Virus record (IMG/VR): IMGVR_UViG_3300028840_006907 | Location: 1-64,000 of that record | Reading direction: 5' to 3' (one strand) | DNA from: a virus | DNA length: 64,000 nucleotides | In this document: piece after piece, positions 5,353 to 52,872 of the stretch | Layout: each line of letters begins with the position of its first letter | How positions within the stretch are numbered: the first letter of the stretch is position 1 | The notes under the pieces: model-generated | What the model saw: only the letters and a program-made list of their open reading frames with translations | Database searches by the model: none | Told to the model about the DNA's origin: nothing | Program-made: the position numbers and the translations under genes

Positions 5353-6360
5353 TTAATCTACCCATTGAATTTTTCTACGGTACTGACCTGTTACTTCATC
5401 TATATCAGAGACATTTCCTGCTTCCTTTACTATTAAATTTAATTTACGTTTTAATTCTAGCTGAAGATCATCACTTTTTATTATTTCGGGAGAAGTATGT
5501 TTCTCCAAAAAATTATTTTTTAAATCAAGCAATTGTTTTTCAATGCTCACATCTCCAACAAAATTGAGTTCTGAAAAATCATCAATAAATTTTTTAAGTG
5601 AATTAATAGTAGGGCCTTTAACAATTTTCCCTGATTTCATATTGGTGGCGATTTTATCACAAAGAGTTACTACTTGTTCACGAAGATTTGTAACAACCTC
5701 ATTGATAAAAGAACCAATCTTTTCTTGGGCCTCTTTCTGATAAACATCGTAGGCAATATTCTCTTTTGCAATTTTATCTTCAGAAACTTTTCTCATTTTC
5801 GGTAGAGCAATTTCAAATATATTCCAGGTTAAAGAGAACCTATTTCTTAATGAAGTTGTGCTTGGATAGTATGATTTTATTCGGTCAAGAAAATTTGTGA
5901 CGAATTCTTCCTCTTCGTTTTCTTTACCTTCAATACTGAATTCATGAACACCTATTTTTGTTTGTCGGTTATAGGCAGCTTTGGCTGCTTCCTCATAAAT
6001 AGGTAGCATCTCTTTTCGTAATTTGTCGTAATCAACAATCAGGTTATCGATTAATTTATTATATGCCTCCTGATATTCCTGAAGAGTTTGCAGTATTTTT
6101 AAAAATTTCTTTTTGGGTACAAACCGTGCTGAACTTATAGGGAATTTAAAACTGTTCGTCTCAACTAGAAACCGAGCTTTACTTTCAATAGATCTGAATT
6201 TATGTATGGTTTCTTTTGGAACGAGCATCTTCTTACCAAGAAGATAAACATTAGATATAGTGTCTTTTTCTAATCCCAAGTCTTGAGCAGTCAGGATTTT
6301 TGCTCCAGTCCAGAACCGCACTTTAATTTCAACTAAAACACCATCTTTAAATATATCCAT
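5353..6360 (-). CDS. DUF3150-like protein (plasmid/phage-associated)
   Basis: N-terminal VLVEIKVRFWTGAKILTAQDLGL pattern recalled as typical of DUF3150; 335 aa. Confidence 0.4.
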   Translation of the reverse strand: MDIFKDGVLVEIKVRFWTGAKILTAQDLGLEKDTISNVYLLGKKMLVPKETIHKFRSIESKARFLVETNSFKFPISSARFVPKKKFLKILQTLQEYQEAYNKLIDNLIVDYDKLRKEMLPIYEEAAKAAYNRQTKIGVHEFSIEGKENEEEEFVTNFLDRIKSYYPSTTSLRNRFSLTWNIFEIALPKMRKVSEDKIAKENIAYDVYQKEAQEKIGSFINEVVTNLREQVVTLCDKIATNMKSGKIVKGPTINSLKKFIDDFSELNFVGDVSIEKQLLDLKNNFLEKHTSPEIIKSDDLQLELKRKLNLIVKEAGNVSDIDEVTGQYRRKIQWVD

Positions 6361-6386: not shown

Positions 6387-6420
6387 CTGTCCCTTTAATG
6401 AAAAAGGGACAGTGTTTTTT
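6387..6420 (+). terminator. hairpin plus T-run oriented for plus-strand transcription
   Basis: ctgtcccttt...aagggacag stem followed by tgtttttt, overlapping stop of 6419-7981 gene. Confidence 0.35.
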
Positions 6421-7981
6421 ATAAGTTTAATTTCCTTTTACCTATTACCTGTTCAGCCTTCATCTCTATTGAAGCTTTTTTCACTCTACGTTTTTCAGAC
6501 CATTCACGGCCTTTCTTAATATCCTCGGCATAAAGCTGTGCTGTAAGTGATACTTCTTTAGCACTTGTAACAAGATCTTCAGTGGAGATTTCCTGATTTT
6601 TGCTGAATGAAAATTTCAGAGTATCATTAATCCAAACTTCAATTTCAGATCCACTAAAATCTTTAGTGGATTTAACTAATTGCTTTATGTCGAAGTTGCT
6701 GGGGTCACGATTTATTTTTCCCAAATGTATTGAGATAATTTTCTCTCGTTCACTATCATAAGGGAAATCAACCCAGAAGATTGCATCCATACGACCACCA
6801 CGAATTAGTTCAGGAGGTAGTTTCGTTGCATCGTTTGAAGTAGCTGCAATGAATACATCAGTTGTTCTTTCAGCCATCCAGGTTAAAAGTGTTGCTAGCA
6901 TTTTTTGAGAAGTCTCATGAACATGCCCACTTTTATTATTAGGAAAAGCTTTTTCGATTTCATCTATTCGTAAGACACAGGGAGCATTTGCATCAACGAT
7001 ACTGAGACATCTTCTTATTTTCTCTTCTGATTCTCCTACAAGACTGCCTAAGAGTGCACCTACATCAAGACTGAATAATGGTCGTTCCCAAACATTGGCG
7101 ATAACTTTTGCAACAAGAGATTTCCCGGTTCCAGGAGGGCCTACGAATAGGGCACCTTTGGGAGGAAGTATTCCATATTCTCTGGCTTTCTCAGTGAAAC
7201 AATTCTTTCTAACCAGGAGCCATTCTTTAAGGTTATCAAGTCCACCAATGTCATCAAGAGTTTCTGTTACACTAATAACATTTAAGAGCCCTGTGTTTTT
7301 AACAACTGTGGCTTTTTCTCTATTAATAACATTAATGTCAAGACATTTTCTTTCAACAATGGAAAGAGAATAAGCATTCTCAGCTTCATCAGATGTCATT
7401 CCTAAGGCTGCTTCAATAAGGGAAGTATCGTTTTTGGGGTACTCTATGGAATCTTCAACTGATCTAGCGTTTTCATAAGCTCGTTGACATACTTTTCTTA
7501 AAGTATTTGTATTTGGAAGTTTAAAATCAATTACAGTTATTTCTTTCTTTAATTCATCTGGTATTGATGAACAGCAAGAAACAACAGCCAAAACTCTACC
7601 GGTAGATCTGCAGATTGGAATTATATTTCGTATTTTTCGTTGAATAAAATCTTTTTTAATATAATGGTGGAAATCTAATAGAAAAAAGATAGAATTCTCT
7701 TCCACCTCTTCTGAACTTATCCAATTAAGAGCCAACATTGGATCATCTGTTTTAGTTTTTATATCTAATTTATTTTCTAAAAGGATATTATTATCATTTA
7801 TTTCTCGGAGTTTGATTCCATCAACTCTGTCCCAAGAATAAAATTTATAATTTCCTTTGTCAAGTTTGTTCATTTCATTTGCTAGGGTTCTTATCGCCCT
7901 ATGTTCTTCATGGGTCTGTATCCACAAAATTGTATAACCGGCACGTATATAATTTGAAAAGATGTGTTCTTTATTTTCCAT
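6419..7981 (-). CDS. AAA+ ATPase with N-terminal domain of unknown function
   Basis: Walker A GPPGTGKS, Walker B VLRIDEIEKA, sensor region TSNDATKLPPELIRGGRMD. Confidence 0.85.
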   Translation of the reverse strand: MENKEHIFSNYIRAGYTILWIQTHEEHRAIRTLANEMNKLDKGNYKFYSWDRVDGIKLREINDNNILLENKLDIKTKTDDPMLALNWISSEEVEENSIFFLLDFHHYIKKDFIQRKIRNIIPICRSTGRVLAVVSCCSSIPDELKKEITVIDFKLPNTNTLRKVCQRAYENARSVEDSIEYPKNDTSLIEAALGMTSDEAENAYSLSIVERKCLDINVINREKATVVKNTGLLNVISVTETLDDIGGLDNLKEWLLVRKNCFTEKAREYGILPPKGALFVGPPGTGKSLVAKVIANVWERPLFSLDVGALLGSLVGESEEKIRRCLSIVDANAPCVLRIDEIEKAFPNNKSGHVHETSQKMLATLLTWMAERTTDVFIAATSNDATKLPPELIRGGRMDAIFWVDFPYDSEREKIISIHLGKINRDPSNFDIKQLVKSTKDFSGSEIEVWINDTLKFSFSKNQEISTEDLVTSAKEVSLTAQLYAEDIKKGREWSEKRRVKKASIEMKAEQVIGKRKLNL

Positions 7982-30275: not shown

Positions 30276-30524
30276 TTATTTTCCTTGTGTGTATTTTTTA
30301 AGTACTTTTTTTACTTCTCGTGCAGTCTCCCCACGCCATGTCTTCATATTATTCAATGCATATAATATCTGAAGTTTAAATGAATCAACAGCCATACCAT
30401 TTAAACCACCAAGTTCTATCGATTCAGAAATATTTTTTAGATATGATTGGGCATAAGGATTTTTACACTGTTCTTTAGCAATTCTTATAGCTTCATCAAC
30501 TGTCATATTTATTTTTCTATCCAT
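30276..30524 (-). CDS. hypothetical protein
   Basis: 82-aa ORF. Confidence 0.45.
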   Translation of the reverse strand: MDRKINMTVDEAIRIAKEQCKNPYAQSYLKNISESIELGGLNGMAVDSFKLQILYALNNMKTWRGETAREVKKVLKKYTQGK

Positions 30525-31458
30525 TAAATTCTACAAAAGTAGTATTGAGCATTGAATCATCCGGTAACGGGAAAGGCATAATTAAAGAAGTCGAATCATT
30601 ATTTGAAATAGTTACTGCGTGTTTCTTTGATTTGGGAAAATTTATATATCCCTGTGCAAGCTTTAAGACCTTCTTTAAATTATTAGCATCAAGCATAATA
30701 ACCTTATCAGGAAACAATTCAACACCAATATTGATTTTAAAAGAAAGCCCTGCACCACTCACAACTTTAATATCAGTACCATCAAATACCACAAACATAT
30801 TCAAGATATAGTGAGGCTTTAATAATTTAAGAGCTTTAAGAATATCCTTCTTAATCTTATCGGTGATTTCGATATGGGTATTCCCTTTAGGAACACAGTG
30901 AAACCAGGAAGGATAGACTTCTCTAGTAATAAGCTCACAGATAATTGTAACACCATCACCTTTTGCAATAGAATACTTATCATTAAAGAATATCTGAGTT
31001 AGTTTAAAATGGTGTAACAGTTTCCAGAACTCAGGTCTTATTAAAATCGATTCCGGTATATCTTTTAATTCATGAGTGTATAAGATCCGGCCATCAGTCG
31101 CAACAATACATTCATGTTCTTTATCGAAATAAATCCCTGATAAAGAATTATCTTTATCGTTACTTACGAAATTCACAATCTCGTATGGGATATCTGTGAC
31201 ATCAACCATAGGCATCTCAGCATTTAAATCAACACCGAGATTCATTTCTGGAATATCAGAGTAACCCATATTTAATAGTTCACCCTTACTGAATGTGTAA
31301 TGTCCTTCTTCCATTTCTGAATCTATGGTAACCCATATCCAACCATGTTCTTTATGATTCGTGAAATGAGCTTTCCCATTAGAGAAGAATATCCTATTGG
31401 TTTTTGATAACATTTTTATCTTTTTCAAAGTTTTGATACTCATAATTATTAACTCCAA
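30517..31458 (-). CDS. hypothetical protein
   Basis: 313-aa ORF overlapping both neighbours. Confidence 0.55.
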   Translation of the reverse strand: MELIIMSIKTLKKIKMLSKTNRIFFSNGKAHFTNHKEHGWIWVTIDSEMEEGHYTFSKGELLNMGYSDIPEMNLGVDLNAEMPMVDVTDIPYEIVNFVSNDKDNSLSGIYFDKEHECIVATDGRILYTHELKDIPESILIRPEFWKLLHHFKLTQIFFNDKYSIAKGDGVTIICELITREVYPSWFHCVPKGNTHIEITDKIKKDILKALKLLKPHYILNMFVVFDGTDIKVVSGAGLSFKINIGVELFPDKVIMLDANNLKKVLKLAQGYINFPKSKKHAVTISNNDSTSLIMPFPLPDDSMLNTTFVEFNG

Positions 31459-31963: not shown

Positions 31964-32206
31964 TTATTTCCATATTTCGTAGGTAATGATACTATCCTTT
32001 TCATGGAAAGAAGGACAGGAAACTAAACAAGTACCTTCATCATTTGCGTAATAGTATCCGGTAAGAGAGGTGTCTTGTTTCTTAATATTAAAACCCTTCT
32101 TTTTCGCCATAGCATCAAATTGAACTATGGGTATATTAGAAGCAATCACCTTAGCTTTATTTGTAACCAATGTATCATGATCAACTAAGACAACAGAGAT
32201 ATTCAT
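31964..32206 (-). CDS. hypothetical protein
   Basis: 80-aa ORF. Confidence 0.45.
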   Translation of the reverse strand: MNISVVLVDHDTLVTNKAKVIASNIPIVQFDAMAKKKGFNIKKQDTSLTGYYYANDEGTCLVSCPSFHEKDSIITYEIWK

Positions 32207-33003: not shown

Positions 33004-33318
33004 TTAACACCCCATCTGTTCCATAATACTTTTAACTTTACGCACAAACCATATAGGCAATCTTAATATTCCCCCTATACTATTGCCCTTGATATCTTCA
33101 TCTTCCTGTTTAATAGTTTTTAAATATGCTTCTGGTCGTATAAGTGTTCTACTATCCAAAGTAATTGAAGGATTGTTATTTGTATAAATAGAACTACCCG
33201 TAGTCGCTATAATAAACATGTCATCTTTAATCGGAATACCTAATTCCTCTGTAGGAATTATTGTAGTGATAATAGTCTTATCACCAACACATCGTAAGAA
33301 TACTGGATGCTGTATCAT
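33004..33318 (-). CDS. hypothetical protein
   Basis: 104-aa ORF. Confidence 0.45.
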   Translation of the reverse strand: MIQHPVFLRCVGDKTIITTIIPTEELGIPIKDDMFIIATTGSSIYTNNNPSITLDSRTLIRPEAYLKTIKQEDEDIKGNSIGGILRLPIWFVRKVKSIMEQMGC

Positions 33319-33324
33319 AATTAT

Positions 33325-33561
33325 TTACTCCCATGATAAAATTGACATACCTAAACAAGTCTCAAGCTCCTCTTGAGAACTAGGTACATGATCAGGTCGA
33401 AACTTAATCCAAGTAGAAGTTTTAACTCCCCGTACATAGGGAGGATTACATTCGATGGTCACCGCAGGAACAAAAGAAACTATGCAGTTAATCAAACCAT
33501 TACTTTCAAATTCATTGTATCGGGTAAACTTAAATGTATCCATAAATATAACTTCTTCCAT
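33325..33561 (-). CDS. hypothetical protein
   Basis: 78-aa ORF. Confidence 0.45.
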   Translation of the reverse strand: MEEVIFMDTFKFTRYNEFESNGLINCIVSFVPAVTIECNPPYVRGVKTSTWIKFRPDHVPSSQEELETCLGMSILSWE

Positions 33562-33689
33562 AAGTATTTCTGGTTTAATGGGTTACCATTGTCTACCGAC
33601 AAAATCCTCTTCATCTTCATCAGGATTGATCACATTATCCCATATGATCTTTTTAATTTTTACAAATAGCTGTATGATAAATTTCATAA

Positions 33690-33872
33690 TCAGTCCTCTG
33701 GCTGAAATGTTAAGATTAAATTCTCAATCTTTATTCCAAAGCTCCGTACCTTGTCCAATAAGGTCGGGAAATTATCCACTATAATAATTCTCGGTTTATC
33801 CTTAATAATCCCAAAAGCACTTATTGCCTTATCTGAATAATGAAGATTAATCTGTAATTCAATTTTATTCAT
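33690..33872 (-). CDS. small conserved protein, paralog of 35047-35238
   Basis: Shared DKPRIIIV(D/R)(N/D)FP...VR..GIK(I/L)E(N/D)L core. Confidence 0.55.
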   Translation of the reverse strand: MNKIELQINLHYSDKAISAFGIIKDKPRIIIVDNFPTLLDKVRSFGIKIENLILTFQPED

Positions 33873-33873
33873 A

Positions 33874-34542
33874 TCAACATGCCCTCTCTGAATAAATATT
33901 ATAATTCTCAGGTAAGTTTATCGGAACCTCCTGAAACAACTCATCAATAGCCTTCTCCGCTGTAATAGTATCATAAAAGTAGATGTCCTCTACTTCCTGC
34001 TCTAAATCCTCAGCATCCATATCACTCTCCGATAAATCCTCCCTACGAGATACCCTAACTTTAAATAACTTCACTTCATATTTCGATACCAACAAATCCG
34101 GGAAATCATCAGGGTCACCCAATACAATAACAAAAACATTCTTTAAATCATATGCCTCATAATCTATCCAGATACACTCCTGATGAAGGTATCCCCGAAA
34201 CCGAATACCTTTTACAATTGCACCACACTCTATGTAAGGTGCCATCTTAACATCACTAACCTTCTCAAGACTCTCATCCATACGGGCACAACTATTTATA
34301 ATATTACCCTTGTAACCATCATTGTATCTTAATACAACCTCCATAGTACGATCAGGACTAATATCAGCATCAAAGTCAAAATGAAAATCCACCAACAAAC
34401 TTAAACGCTCATACTCAGTTCCCGATCTAAATTTAACCAACCTAATTTTATCAATCTCGGAACCAACAGGCAATGAATTTAATAAATCCTTATCACCTAT
34501 CTTATAGCCACGACTACCATCTGCACTTATATTAACTCTCAT
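33874..34542 (-). CDS. hypothetical protein
   Basis: 222-aa ORF. Confidence 0.5.
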   Translation of the reverse strand: MRVNISADGSRGYKIGDKDLLNSLPVGSEIDKIRLVKFRSGTEYERLSLLVDFHFDFDADISPDRTMEVVLRYNDGYKGNIINSCARMDESLEKVSDVKMAPYIECGAIVKGIRFRGYLHQECIWIDYEAYDLKNVFVIVLGDPDDFPDLLVSKYEVKLFKVRVSRREDLSESDMDAEDLEQEVEDIYFYDTITAEKAIDELFQEVPINLPENYNIYSERAC

Positions 34543-34544
34543 AA

Positions 34545-34901
34545 TTACATTTCCTCCTCTATATATCTCCTTGCTTCATCTTCACTCTTAAAATAAAAAG
34601 TCGTTATATCCTTCAATTTTTTAATACGCCACTTCTTATCCTTATGATGAAATATCCTACCCTCTGAATCAACGATATAATAATAAGTCGAAGCAGCTCT
34701 ACCAAATCCATCAGGTAAATATTGATTACTAACTATCCAATAATCACCTACTCTCGGATACTTATCCAAATAGCCCAACCTCTCATAACAACTTTCACAT
34801 AATAACTCTTCAGAAGTAGCATCCTCCGGGACATCCGGGATACTAATCCCACAAACAATACATTTTATCTGATTTTCATATGCCATAATTATTTCTTCCA
34901 A
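34545..34901 (-). CDS. hypothetical Cys-containing protein
   Basis: CIVCG...CESC motifs; 118 aa. Confidence 0.5.
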   Translation of the reverse strand: MEEIIMAYENQIKCIVCGISIPDVPEDATSEELLCESCYERLGYLDKYPRVGDYWIVSNQYLPDGFGRAASTYYYIVDSEGRIFHHKDKKWRIKKLKDITTFYFKSEDEARRYIEEEM

Positions 34902-35046
34902 TCTTTTTCATAAAATTCACAGACTACATAATCAGCTTTTTTTTCTTTAAAATAAGAACAATAAATACAACCTTTTCCAACTTCAACTTCTTTGTCTTTA
35001 TAGAAAGGACATATTTTTACATTTTTATAATATATCTTCAACATGA

Positions 35047-35238
35047 TTATTTACTCCTTGTTAAATCCTCAAGCTTTATCCCCAATCCACGTACCTGTTT
35101 AAATAACTCCGGGAAATCTCTCACTATTATAATCCTCGGCTTATCCTCAATCAGCCCATAAGCACTTAGCTTATCTGAACTATATCCTAAATTAACCTGT
35201 AACGATACTTTATCCATATTCTTACCTCCATATAACAT
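35047..35238 (-). CDS. small conserved protein, paralog of 33690-33872
   Basis: About half the residues identical to 33690-33872 product. Confidence 0.55.
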   Translation of the reverse strand: MLYGGKNMDKVSLQVNLGYSSDKLSAYGLIEDKPRIIIVRDFPELFKQVRGLGIKLEDLTRSK

Positions 35239-35740
35239 TATATATACCCAATTACCTTTTTTATCCAGTAATATAACATTTTAATACTATCAAATACCAA
35301 CGTCCTATATGGTGCGTCCGTATTAATCTCTATTAAATCAGTCGTCCTATATCTTTAAACTATGGTCTATATAGTAATAAACACGATCTATAAATCAAAT
35401 AACAATTTTAAGGTAATCCTCTTACTCATCAATATCCATATCTTTATAATAAAAAACCCACACATAGCACCTATAAAAATGTGGAACCCTTTAAGGCATT
35501 TCTTAAGTAACTATGTATGGGCACTGAAAGGGATTTATACAAATCCCATTATTATCTTAATATATTAACTTACTATATGTCTATACCTATAAACATATCC
35601 CCCTATATATTACTAATTAGTAATATGAATGTAATTATCCCTATCCCCTATATCTAATAACCTATAAACTATCCATTAAGTATATCTGTATCCTATCCAT
35701 ATAATAACTCTGTAAGAGAAAATTAATATGTATCAGTATG

Positions 35741-35890
35741 CCCATTACCTTGAATAGAATAATGAGTAAGTCAGTACCAGGAACTATACCATCATGAACT
35801 ATGAACTCGGAACTATGTCAGGGAAAACTTGAGTACTTACCCATTACCTTGAATAGAATAATGGGTAAGTCAATACCAGGAACTATGTCG
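35741..35890. repeat. about 48-bp direct repeat x2 (period 99 bp), each with internal inverted repeat
   Basis: cccattaccttgaatagaataatg(a/g)gtaagtca(g/a)taccaggaactat at 35741 and 35840. Confidence 0.85.
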
Positions 35891-36057
35891 GGAATTTCCA
35901 ACGAGTATTTTGAAAAAATTTATTCTCCCTGCAAAACCCGGAACCGATTTCCTAGTTCCTACAATCATATATTAATAATCTTTTGTTATCTGTATAAGTA
36001 AATTTACACAGGGTAATTGACTGATCAAAGTAAGTTAATGTCTTCCCAAACCGAGTC

Positions 36058-36141
36058 TTTGACTTGGGGAAATTGGTTGTTGACTGTAGAGAAGAATAAT
36101 TTCACTTGCTCATTTGGGTATTTGACTTGGGGAAACTGGTT
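36058..36141. repeat. 21-bp direct repeat x2 (period 63 bp)
   Basis: tttgacttggggaaa(t/c)tggtt at 36058 and 36121. Confidence 0.85.
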
Positions 36142-36511
36142 CCCGACTATCAAAAGTGGGGTTAAAAACGAGGGGGGTTACCCCTAAATTTGATATTTCC
36201 AGACTGGGAACTCAGACAGGGGCGATTCCAGACTGTTTCTGGCCAGACTGGGGGAAAGACCTAAGACGGTCTTAGTCCACTCATCCAAGACCATTGCCAT
36301 TTATCTGATCCGTAGCTCCAGACCTGGAATGACTTGGATAGAATTTTATATGTTACTGCCAGACAGAAAATGATCTTTGAGTCTCCACGTCCCAGGATTT
36401 CCTGGACACCGTGTAATCCACGGAACTCTAGGCTATCGGCTGATTTAATTTCGTTCTGAACTTCTATGGGAAGTTCATTCATGTTTATTTGATCTATACT
36501 TGTGATATGCA

Positions 36512-37691: not shown

Positions 37692-38011
37692 TTTCTGATA
37701 TTATGTTGTTCTTTTTGATGAGTCACCCAGCTATCATAACCCAGACGGGTCTCCTCATTAGAGACAGCGAGTCTCCATTCTTTCATAGGAAAGTCGGGAT
37801 CTTCAGTTTCGAGTTTAGGATTTTGTTTGATGTAATCTGCTATGGATAATTCTTTTTCCAGTACACCTTCACACCCATCATTGGTAAGATTGACTTCGAC
37901 TATTTTATAACCATCTTCGTTTAATTGTTTATGTTTTATCATGATCTCTTTTAAGGATGAAGATGTGAAAGTAACTCTTTTAATGATTAAATCTTGGTTT
38001 TGGATCTTCAT
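37688..38011 (-). CDS. hypothetical protein
   Basis: 107-aa ORF. Confidence 0.45.
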   Translation of the reverse strand: MKIQNQDLIIKRVTFTSSSLKEIMIKHKQLNEDGYKIVEVNLTNDGCEGVLEKELSIADYIKQNPKLETEDPDFPMKEWRLAVSNEETRLGYDSWVTHQKEQHNIRK

Positions 38012-38017
38012 AAATTT

Positions 38018-38239
38018 TTACTCCTGGTTATTCTGTACGAGGAATGGGTGAAAACATCCATCTATGTATTGAAGTTTATACTCATCAGTTCCTTCTCTGA
38101 ATACAGTAGGTAAAGTTTCACCTTTATTATTCACATAAGCATTCCCTGTATAGTAATGATGCTTCTTATCAAATGTGAGACCGTATTTCTTACCTATGGC
38201 GGTCAGAGTCCTACGGGCTTTAACAATTTTATTATTCAT
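38018..38239 (-). CDS. hypothetical protein
   Basis: 73-aa ORF. Confidence 0.45.
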   Translation of the reverse strand: MNNKIVKARRTLTAIGKKYGLTFDKKHHYYTGNAYVNNKGETLPTVFREGTDEYKLQYIDGCFHPFLVQNNQE

Positions 38240-49618: not shown

Positions 49619-50077
49619 CTATATCCTTTTGTGATGTTTAATCATTCTTGCAGAATTATCCCGACCTGTACTAACATGAATCAGGAAGTTATATTTAACT
49701 TTATCCTTCCTGATTATTTCAATGTACAAATGATCAGAAACAAAACCGTTTTCTTTAAGATCTTCAGTATCACCGGCACCTTGGTACCATACTAACTGTA
49801 TAGTATCATTCTCCCGTAATAAACTGATAACAGTCTTTAACGGGCAAAATTCGAAGTCATACATACTGTGATGACTGAAACAGTATGTCTTATTTTTGTA
49901 GCTATAATTTATATATCTTTGTTTCGATTCTACGTTAAATACATGATCACTATCGAACGGGTTATCGTCAGATTTCTTTTTATAGCACTCCACTGTACTA
50001 ATAGAGTTTTCAGTTCTAAAACATATTGTATCGGCTTGTTTCATTGCCTGTATATCGATCTTCTTAATGGTTTTCAT
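49619..50077 (-). CDS. hypothetical protein
   Basis: 152-aa ORF. Confidence 0.5.
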   Translation of the reverse strand: MKTIKKIDIQAMKQADTICFRTENSISTVECYKKKSDDNPFDSDHVFNVESKQRYINYSYKNKTYCFSHHSMYDFEFCPLKTVISLLRENDTIQLVWYQGAGDTEDLKENGFVSDHLYIEIIRKDKVKYNFLIHVSTGRDNSARMIKHHKRI

Positions 50078-51572: not shown

Positions 51573-51940
51573 CATGAATAATGAAAAAAGTTTAGTAACT
51601 TTCCGAAGTTTTAAGAAACTTTTTCTTTGACGTTTGTTTTTTGTGGCTTTCATGAGTAATGAAAAAAGTTTAGTAACTTTCCGAAGTTTTAAAAATTTTT
51701 TCTTTCATGTAAACTTTTCCTTGTCTACATGAGTAATGAAAAAAGTTTAGTAACTTTCCGAAGTTTTAAAAATTTTTTCTTTCATGTAAACTTTTCCTTG
51801 TCTACATGAGTAATGAAATTAGTTTGGTAACTTTCCGAAGTTTTAAAAATTTTTTCTTTCATGTAAACTTTTCCTTGTCTACATGAGTAATGAAATTAGT
51901 TTGGTAACTTTCCGGAAAAAATTGTAAAAACGCTATTTTC
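51573..51940. repeat. 77-bp tandem direct repeats, about 4.4 copies
   Basis: Units begin at 51573 (degenerate), 51651, 51728, 51805, 51882 (partial). Confidence 0.95.
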
Positions 51941-52312: not shown

Positions 52313-52370
52313 TGGCGCATATCCTGTTATAGTGGCGCATATTCTATTATAATGGCGCATATTTCAGTTC
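52313..52370. repeat. three direct GTGGCGCATAT boxes at about 20-bp spacing
   Basis: gtggcgcatatcctgttata / gtggcgcatattctattata / atggcgcatatttcagttca. Confidence 0.9.
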
Positions 52371-52397: not shown

Positions 52398-52628
52398 CAG
52401 GGAACAGGGAACTGAGCACAGGGAACTGAGCACAGGGAACCGAGCACAGGGAACCGAGCACAGGGAACTGAGCACAGGGAACTGAGCACAGGGAACTGAG
52501 CACAGGGAACCGAGCACAGGGAACCGAGCACAGGGAACTGAGCACAGGGAACCGAGCACAGGGAACTGAGAACAGGGAACCGAGCACAGGGAACTGAGAA
52601 CAGGGAACTGAGAACAGGGAACCGAGCA
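52398..52628. repeat. 14-bp tandem repeat array, 16 copies, GC-rich
   Basis: CAGGGAAC(T/C)GAGCA with T/C and C/A variants; partial copy then units from 52405. Confidence 0.95.
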
Positions 52629-52872
52629 CCTGTATCTGTGATCTCGGAAAAGTTTCGGGAAAAAAATCGGGAACGGCTCAGGGCTGAGAAATAGGTATGA
52701 ATTTTTTTGGGGTATAATTTTTGGAGTTAAACAGTTGGGGAAATTGGAGTTATCTTATGTGAGGTGATGGGATAGTTTATGGAGGGTGAAAATTTTTTGG
52801 TATAGTTTGATGGAGAAACAGGTATAATACTTATAGGACGGAAAAATTTAAGTCTAATGGTTCGAGGATCTT

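Follow-up and report, generated by a model that had tools for sequence, protein, structure and literature searches.

We analyzed the first 64,000 nucleotides of the IMG/VR virus record IMGVR_UViG_3300028840_006907, here called the window, in which two small genes of similar sequence lie on the minus strand on either side of a short run of other genes. Both open reading frames (ORFs) of the pair, which we call copy A and copy B, were present in the ORF listing where the first-pass annotation had placed them (Table 1). Copy A was listed as 35047-35238, a 63-aa ORF starting from the ATG at 35238. However, its true start is most likely the second ATG, at 35217, because a GGAGG lies 7 nt upstream of this codon and all members of the family described below align from there. 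The ATG of copy B lies 1 nt after the stop codon of a 222-aa ORF, and the copies point the same way, at a distance of 1345 nt.

Table 1 Features of the window discussed in the text
Feature	Position	Strand	Remarks
Copy A	35047..35217	-	56 aa from the probable start; first gene after ~1 kb of noncoding DNA
51-aa ORF	34889..35044	-	Four Cys (C12, C26, C29, C42); absent from the first-pass annotation
113-aa ORF	34545..34886	-	N-terminal CxxC...CxxC zinc-ribbon-like motif; length from the probable start
222-aa ORF	33874..34542	-	Acidic C-terminal part; orphan within the limits of the searches
Copy B	33690..33872	-	60 aa, ending in ...LILTFQPED; canonical family member
Candidate 34-aa ORF	33583..33687	-	MKFIIQLFVKIKKIIWDNVINPDEDEEDFVGRQW; read from the sequence
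Noncoding leader	35239..36260 or 36300		~1 kb, upstream of copy A
Junction motif sites	31441-31456, 33316-33331, 34884-34899, 35042-35057, 38009-38024	-	GGAGTAAATAATYATG
AAA+ ATPase gene	6419-7981	-
DUF3150 gene	5353-6360	-
Tandem repeats	51573-51914, 52313-52363, 52404-52629

In a BLASTP comparison, the two proteins were identical at 30 and positive at 41 of 52 aligned positions, with no gaps (E = 9e-23). A profile of the family recovered both copies from the six-frame translation of the window at E values of 1e-32 and 6e-25, with the next best match at 0.18. These scores rule out chance or low-complexity similarity, and the resemblance of the pair is real and far beyond chance. The shared core described in the first pass (DKPRIIIV, DFP/NFP, and VR..GIK.E.L) was correct; it is not of low complexity and persists in the profile alignment. 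We found no third copy in the window (family HMM against the six-frame translation) and no other true protein paralog pair in an all-against-all BLASTP of its ORFs, the remaining matches of which stem from noncoding DNA repeats.

The segment DKPRIIIV, which makes up the β2-β3 hairpin and edge strand 3 and varies more across the family than any other part, is the same in copy A and copy B, and the three differences in its DNA are all synonymous. The C terminus of copy A, ...EDLTRSK, is without the TFQPE of the family. A nucleotide comparison of the copies and their flanks, which had been proposed as a check, aligned them at 77% identity across 108 nt (33716-33823 versus 35061-35168). This similarity stops at the borders of the coding sequences, and the flanks do not align.

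Two genes had been reported between the copies. Both of them (34545-34901 and 33874-34542) are present, but the count was wrong, since three ORFs lie there. The third, a 51-aa ORF that is annotated as a gene in public data, starts 2 nt past the stop codon of copy A, whose last codons form its AAGGAG ribosome-binding site, 9 nt before its ATG. It had no homologue in the family libraries (Pfam, PHROGs, PADLOC, and NCBIfam) or in the related loci. The next ORF was listed as 118 aa from a TTG at 34901, but its true start is probably the ATG at 34886, giving 113 aa. It showed sub-threshold matches of zinc-ribbon type only (DUF7685, E = 0.065, and LysW, E = 0.021, in Pfam/NCBIfam), with no above-threshold family, no homologue in the related loci, and no tblastn match in GenBank phages. 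For the 222-aa ORF, there was no family in the same four libraries, no GenBank phage or IMG/VR match, and no homologue in the related loci, and it matched only itself in a word-index search of 5.8 billion proteins. This last negative carries little weight, because the same search with copy A as the query returned copy A alone and missed copy B, which the collection contains and which has the 8-residue word DKPRIIIV in common with the query. When the query is a short or orphan protein, a negative from the word-index search should not count as absence.

Downstream of copy B, a candidate 34-aa ORF that is not in the ORF list has its ATG 2 nt past the stop codon of copy B, and GAGGA in the last codons of copy B could serve as its Shine-Dalgarno sequence. 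In the relatives, the next gene begins 3-12 nt past the stop of the family gene or overlaps it. We also noted a gene-junction motif on the minus strand, GGAGTAAATAATYATG, which joins a Shine-Dalgarno sequence, a stop codon, an AT spacer, and a start codon. It occurs five times at ≤2 mismatches versus 0.3 expected. All of the sites fall inside 31-38 kb, which suggests a stereotyped translational coupling across this block of small genes.

The noncoding DNA upstream of copy A is likely to be the promoter or regulatory region of a transcription unit headed by copy A. It contains a terminator-like hairpin, a 47-nt repeat and a 31-nt repeat (TTTGACTTGGGGAAAYTGGTT) in two copies each, and ATATAGGACG twice. 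Each 47-nt repeat contains a hairpin of its own, which in the better copy is ACTTACCCATTA…TAATGGGTAAGT. A block of ~95 nt in this leader is ~85% identical to a noncoding stretch of the locus L004 (4290-4720), compared with only ~50% identity between the proteins of L004 and those of the window. The block surrounds the terminator-like hairpin GGGGTAACCCCCC-TTTTT, followed by CCCACTTTTGAYAGTCGGGAACCAGTT, and CAGTCTGGAA-type motifs recur in both the leader and L004. The leader had no Rfam family and no exact match in IMG/VR; the conserved block could be a regulatory element or a noncoding RNA.

The small-protein family and its predicted fold

An exhaustive HMMER search of 1.84 billion representatives with a profile of the pair gave 8 genuine relatives of 59-114 aa and one spurious hit (P0010, 769 aa), a repeat protein with 9 short repeated stretches. 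A profile search of 90% clusters brought the family up to 24 clusters. In the alignment of the 24 members, Q7 and N9 are invariant in (L/F)QVNLHF, S18 and G21 are near-invariant in ISAxG, and the start of the helix, NFPxLL, is conserved. The C-terminal motif is (L/I)(T/S)FQPE, with the protein ending 0-2 residues later in 22 members, so that the signature of the family reads (L/F)QVNLHF ... ISAxG ... NFPxLL ... LTFQPE-COOH in ~60 aa. Copy B has all four signature features (Q-V/I-N, ISAxG, NFPxLL, and (T/S)FQPE) and copy A the first three, being the only member of the 24 without TFQP. The codons of the C-terminal motif vary synonymously across loci of 31 to 52% GC, which indicates that the constraint acts on the protein. 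Because of this variation, and because several loci have CCGGAA, we rejected retention as the Shine-Dalgarno sequence of the next gene as the sole cause of the conservation of TFQPE; CCGGAG may nevertheless double as such a sequence in several loci.

Neither copy had a notable match in Pfam-A, PHROGs v4, PADLOC 2.0, or NCBIfam 20, and the other family members matched none of these libraries either. Neither DNA nor protein searches matched the region to GenBank phages or PLSDB plasmids, scans of IMG/VR gave no match and no close relative, and the pair profile matched nothing in the GTDB genomes. A scan of JGI metagenomes added one locus only. A profile search of PDB sequences gave no genuine match, the hits being designed repeat proteins that we set aside as spurious. 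The family is undescribed and uncatalogued; its fold is itself common. Two members, P0011 and P0024, have N-terminal Cys/His-rich extensions joined to the β3-α-β domain. That of P0011 reads C..C…CxxC, and that of P0024 reads CNC…CKH (CxC…CxH), which is SWIM-like by eye; neither had a Pfam match, including to SWIM or zinc-ribbon models. A "Rosetta-stone" link between these extensions and the zinc-ribbon-like and Cys-rich ORFs of the window was discarded, as they have no sequence similarity.

We ran AlphaFold2 with the family alignment, following the earlier suggestion to predict the folds of the small proteins, and obtained β1-β2-β3-α1-β4 models for both copies. The copy B model, a confident one (pLDDT 92.5), has strands at residues 4-9, 17-23, and 26-32, a helix at 35-44, and a strand at 52-56, and the copy A model (pLDDT 86.6) has the same arrangement, with a short fourth strand kept. 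The predicted arrangement is a common one, the "half RNase-H" unit, which represents the minimal RNase-H-like core. Foldseek gave no significant match in PDB or BFVD.

The toxin-binding N-domain of HicB antitoxins has the same partial RNase-H-like β1-β2-β3-α1-β4 arrangement, as seen in the HicB/UPF0150-like structures that we compared, stand-alone UPF0150-like proteins included (PDB 3k6q, SWOL_0700; 1wv8, TTHA1013; and 2yzt, TTHA1756). However, none of 10 family members matched the Pfam HicB, HicB_lk_antitox, or UPF0150 models at E values up to 10, nor did the two copies match HicB/UPF0150 models at E values up to 0.1. Full-length HicB has a C-terminal RHH or HTH domain, whereas the family protein ends 4-5 residues past strand 4 (22/24 members), and HicB has an adjacent HicA, whereas neither HicA nor another toxin family was found among the neighboring genes here (Pfam, PHROGs, PADLOC, and NCBIfam). 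The combination of QVNLHF and a C-terminal TFQPE is a signature of the family's own and not that of HicB.

Compared with RNase-H-like nucleases and transposases (phage RuvC, 4ktw; IS110-type transposase, 9t56), the family has only the first half of the fold, and its likeness to actin-like ASKHA ATPases (AlfA, 6f95; ParM) and sugar kinases is to their first subdomain only. At strand 1, where RNase-H-like enzymes have a catalytic Asp and ASKHA proteins a phosphate-binding loop, the family has the invariant Gln and Asn, and the five-stranded sheet and later carboxylates of the nucleases contrast with four strands and one helix here. Because the models lack the strand-1 Asp, strand 5, and any later helices, nuclease- or ATPase-type catalysis, and with it an enzyme of the RNase-H/ASKHA type, is very unlikely. 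Judging from strand periodicity, Q7, N9, S18, T55, and Q57 would lie on the sheet face opposite the helix, and together with the terminal Pro-Glu they make up a putative functional surface. Small single-domain proteins made early by phages to block host or defense proteins, such as T4 Dmd (60 aa) and T7 Gp2 (64 aa), are likewise ~60 aa long, with a three-stranded sheet and one helix, and are encoded in small-gene arrays like the present family. Rapid divergence and lineage-specific duplication are common among such genes.

History and possible roles of the two copies

Each of the 11 distinct related loci that we recovered has exactly one family gene, and this holds as well for those with ±10 kb of flanking sequence; all of these genes are B-like. 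The neighbors of the family gene vary among the loci and are not conserved. A seeming second copy in L009 (9065-9205) proved to be an out-of-frame artifact of a conserved upstream gene. The genes common to the related loci and the window include those encoding the AAA+ ATPase and DUF3150 and homologues of 30517-31458, 31964-32206, and 49619-50077, among others. In a neighbor-joining tree, copies A and B were sisters in 119/200 bootstraps, a weakly supported grouping, with P0005 next, and the copy A branch was ~2 times as long as that of copy B. The paralogy and duplication proposed in the first pass are therefore supported, as the copies are homologous and closest to each other in the family tree. 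As to its other suggestion, a pair of small regulators, the copies have no DNA-binding domain and no family match.

Over 52 aligned codons, the copies gave a dS of 0.57 and a dN of 0.37 (dN/dS, ~0.65). The identity of DKPRIIIV in what is otherwise the most variable part of the family points to both copies being maintained with a lineage-specific feature in common; alternatively, it may have arisen by old gene conversion. The simplest history would be a local duplication in the present lineage followed by asymmetric divergence, with the C-terminal motif lost from copy A. We regard the locus as a local duplication of an ordinary kind, in sequence that is poorly known; it reveals no new type of genetic element.

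Our preferred reading, to which we give about an even chance, is that a small stand-alone gene for a nonenzymatic half-RNase-H/HicB-N binding module was duplicated locally, probably in this lineage specifically. A nonenzymatic binding role is suggested by the absence of catalytic carboxylates, and the working surface would be formed by conserved polar residues on three of the strands (1, 2, and 4) and the C-terminal Pro-Glu. Copy B, as the canonical member, would retain the ancestral function. Copy A, tail-less, folded, and constrained, would be the first gene of the leader-driven unit and would have retained the fold and the DKPRIIIV hairpin while losing the C-terminal motif and diverging faster. 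It may have become sub- or neofunctionalized, for example by binding either copy B itself or the partner of copy B while lacking the activity that depends on the tail, so that the two copies would divide the labor. The three intervening ORFs would most simply be small genes specific to this lineage that have built up in the space separating the duplicates, and they and the pair are probably cotranscribed as one co-oriented, tightly packed unit.

We consider it unlikely that copy A is instead a decaying duplicate, or incipient pseudogene, leaving copy B alone functional. The loss of a near-universal C-terminal motif from copy A only, its longer branch, and the fairly high overall dN/dS would fit such decay. 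However, the frame of copy A is intact, its GGAGG Shine-Dalgarno sequence is strong, and it is the first gene in the operon; AlphaFold2 predicts its complete fold, Q7, N9, S18, and G21 are kept, and the DKPRIIIV differences are synonymous only.

A slightly poorer prospect is a HicB-like antitoxin or neutralizer, in which each copy would bind the product of the gene coupled downstream, the 51-aa protein for copy A or that of the 34-aa ORF for copy B. Besides the failure of the family to match the HicB/UPF0150 models and the lack of a HicA-like or other toxin family among its neighbors, the downstream genes are unrelated to one another across loci, and the protein has no DNA-binding domain. The tight packing of genes is general in these genomes.

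We give little credence to the suggestion, made in the first pass, of an acquired module, in which the paralogs as direct repeats would delimit an inserted or excisable three-gene cassette. The copies are direct repeats 1345 nt apart, and the available searches returned no homologue of the three intervening genes. Nevertheless, the DNA repeat lies within the coding sequences only and does not run into the flanks, its perfect stretches are too short for efficient homologous recombination, and we found no long near-identical flanking repeats and nothing resembling a recombinase, integrase, or transposase in family scans of the nearby ORFs; we therefore rejected a repeat-bounded cassette. The GC content stays at 0.32-0.33 through 30-36 kb, with no island. 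In the relatives, which the first-pass annotation had named as a place to look for the cassette, all 11 loci are single copy with unrelated neighbors, and the intervening ORFs are without homologues. These ORFs have the same strand and packing as the neighboring genes and share their Shine-Dalgarno sequences and junction style (GGAG-TAA-ATAATT-ATG), and no terminator-like site was predicted between 35238 and 33690. Given these shared features and the lack of a GC island, a recombinase, and an internal terminator-like site, the bracketing of three genes by the paralogs is most probably incidental.

Equally doubtful is the more elaborate idea of a new minimal half-RNase-H/HicB-like effector class in huge phages or giant mobile elements, in which an invariant free TFQPE-COOH would dock onto or inhibit a host or defense protein. 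The tail-less copy A, evolved in this genome and sharing the lineage-specific DKPRIIIV edge strand, would pair with copy B and regulate it, and the two would act as one unit with the intervening Cys-rich and zinc-ribbon proteins, the kind of extension that is fused to the domain in two relatives.

Genome setting and significance

The window has ~32% GC, and nearly all of its genes are on the minus strand up to ~51.5 kb. The exact proteins are encoded by a publicly available contig, AT-rich and mobile-element-like, that measures 469,617 bp. Few genes of the window are recognizable, namely, those for the AAA+ ATPase, DUF3150, FtsK/SpoIIIE, DUF932, an N6/N4 DNA methylase, GP88, an HTH protein, and a deoxyribonucleotidase-like protein. 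There is no tRNA in the window and no Rfam family.

The AAA+ ATPase and DUF3150 genes form a pair conserved with related loci (L005, L013, and L015), with 45-47% identity in L005, and relatives add DUF2997, MoxR-DUF2201, CbbQ/CobT, WGR-DNA ligase, and GIY-YIG to it. AAA+ homologues of 29-43% identity (L017-L044) are found on contigs of 100-560 kb binned into metagenome-assembled genomes (MAGs) of many unrelated phyla, including Riflebacteria, Dependentiae, Verrucomicrobia, and Acidobacteriota. Such a distribution is consistent with a mobile element or huge phage that is widespread, and it points to an unclassified, widely distributed group of very large mobile elements or phages. We saw the small-protein family only in large genomes of this mobile-element or huge-phage-like kind that also have the AAA+ ATPase with DUF3150, some of which add CbbQ/CobT, MoxR-DUF2201, and WGR-ligase modules.

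The direct significance of the pair is modest. Lineage-specific duplication of small accessory genes is ordinary in large mobile genomes. The analysis does delineate an uncatalogued small-protein family of 24 sequence clusters that has a confidently predicted fold and an unusual motif placed strictly at the C terminus and is specific to poorly known, very large mobile-element-like genomes from metagenomes and MAG bins of many phyla. The two copies also form a natural pair with and without the tail, which could be used for probing the role of the TFQPE terminus.

Elsewhere in the window, three arrays of tandem repeats, with units of 77 nt (4.4 copies, 93% match), 20 nt (2.5 copies), and 14 nt (ACAGGGAACTGAGC, 16 copies), coincide exactly with the switch of the coding strand from minus to plus. 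The GC skew flips there from negative to strongly positive, and the region resembles a replication origin rich in iterons or else a divergent control region.
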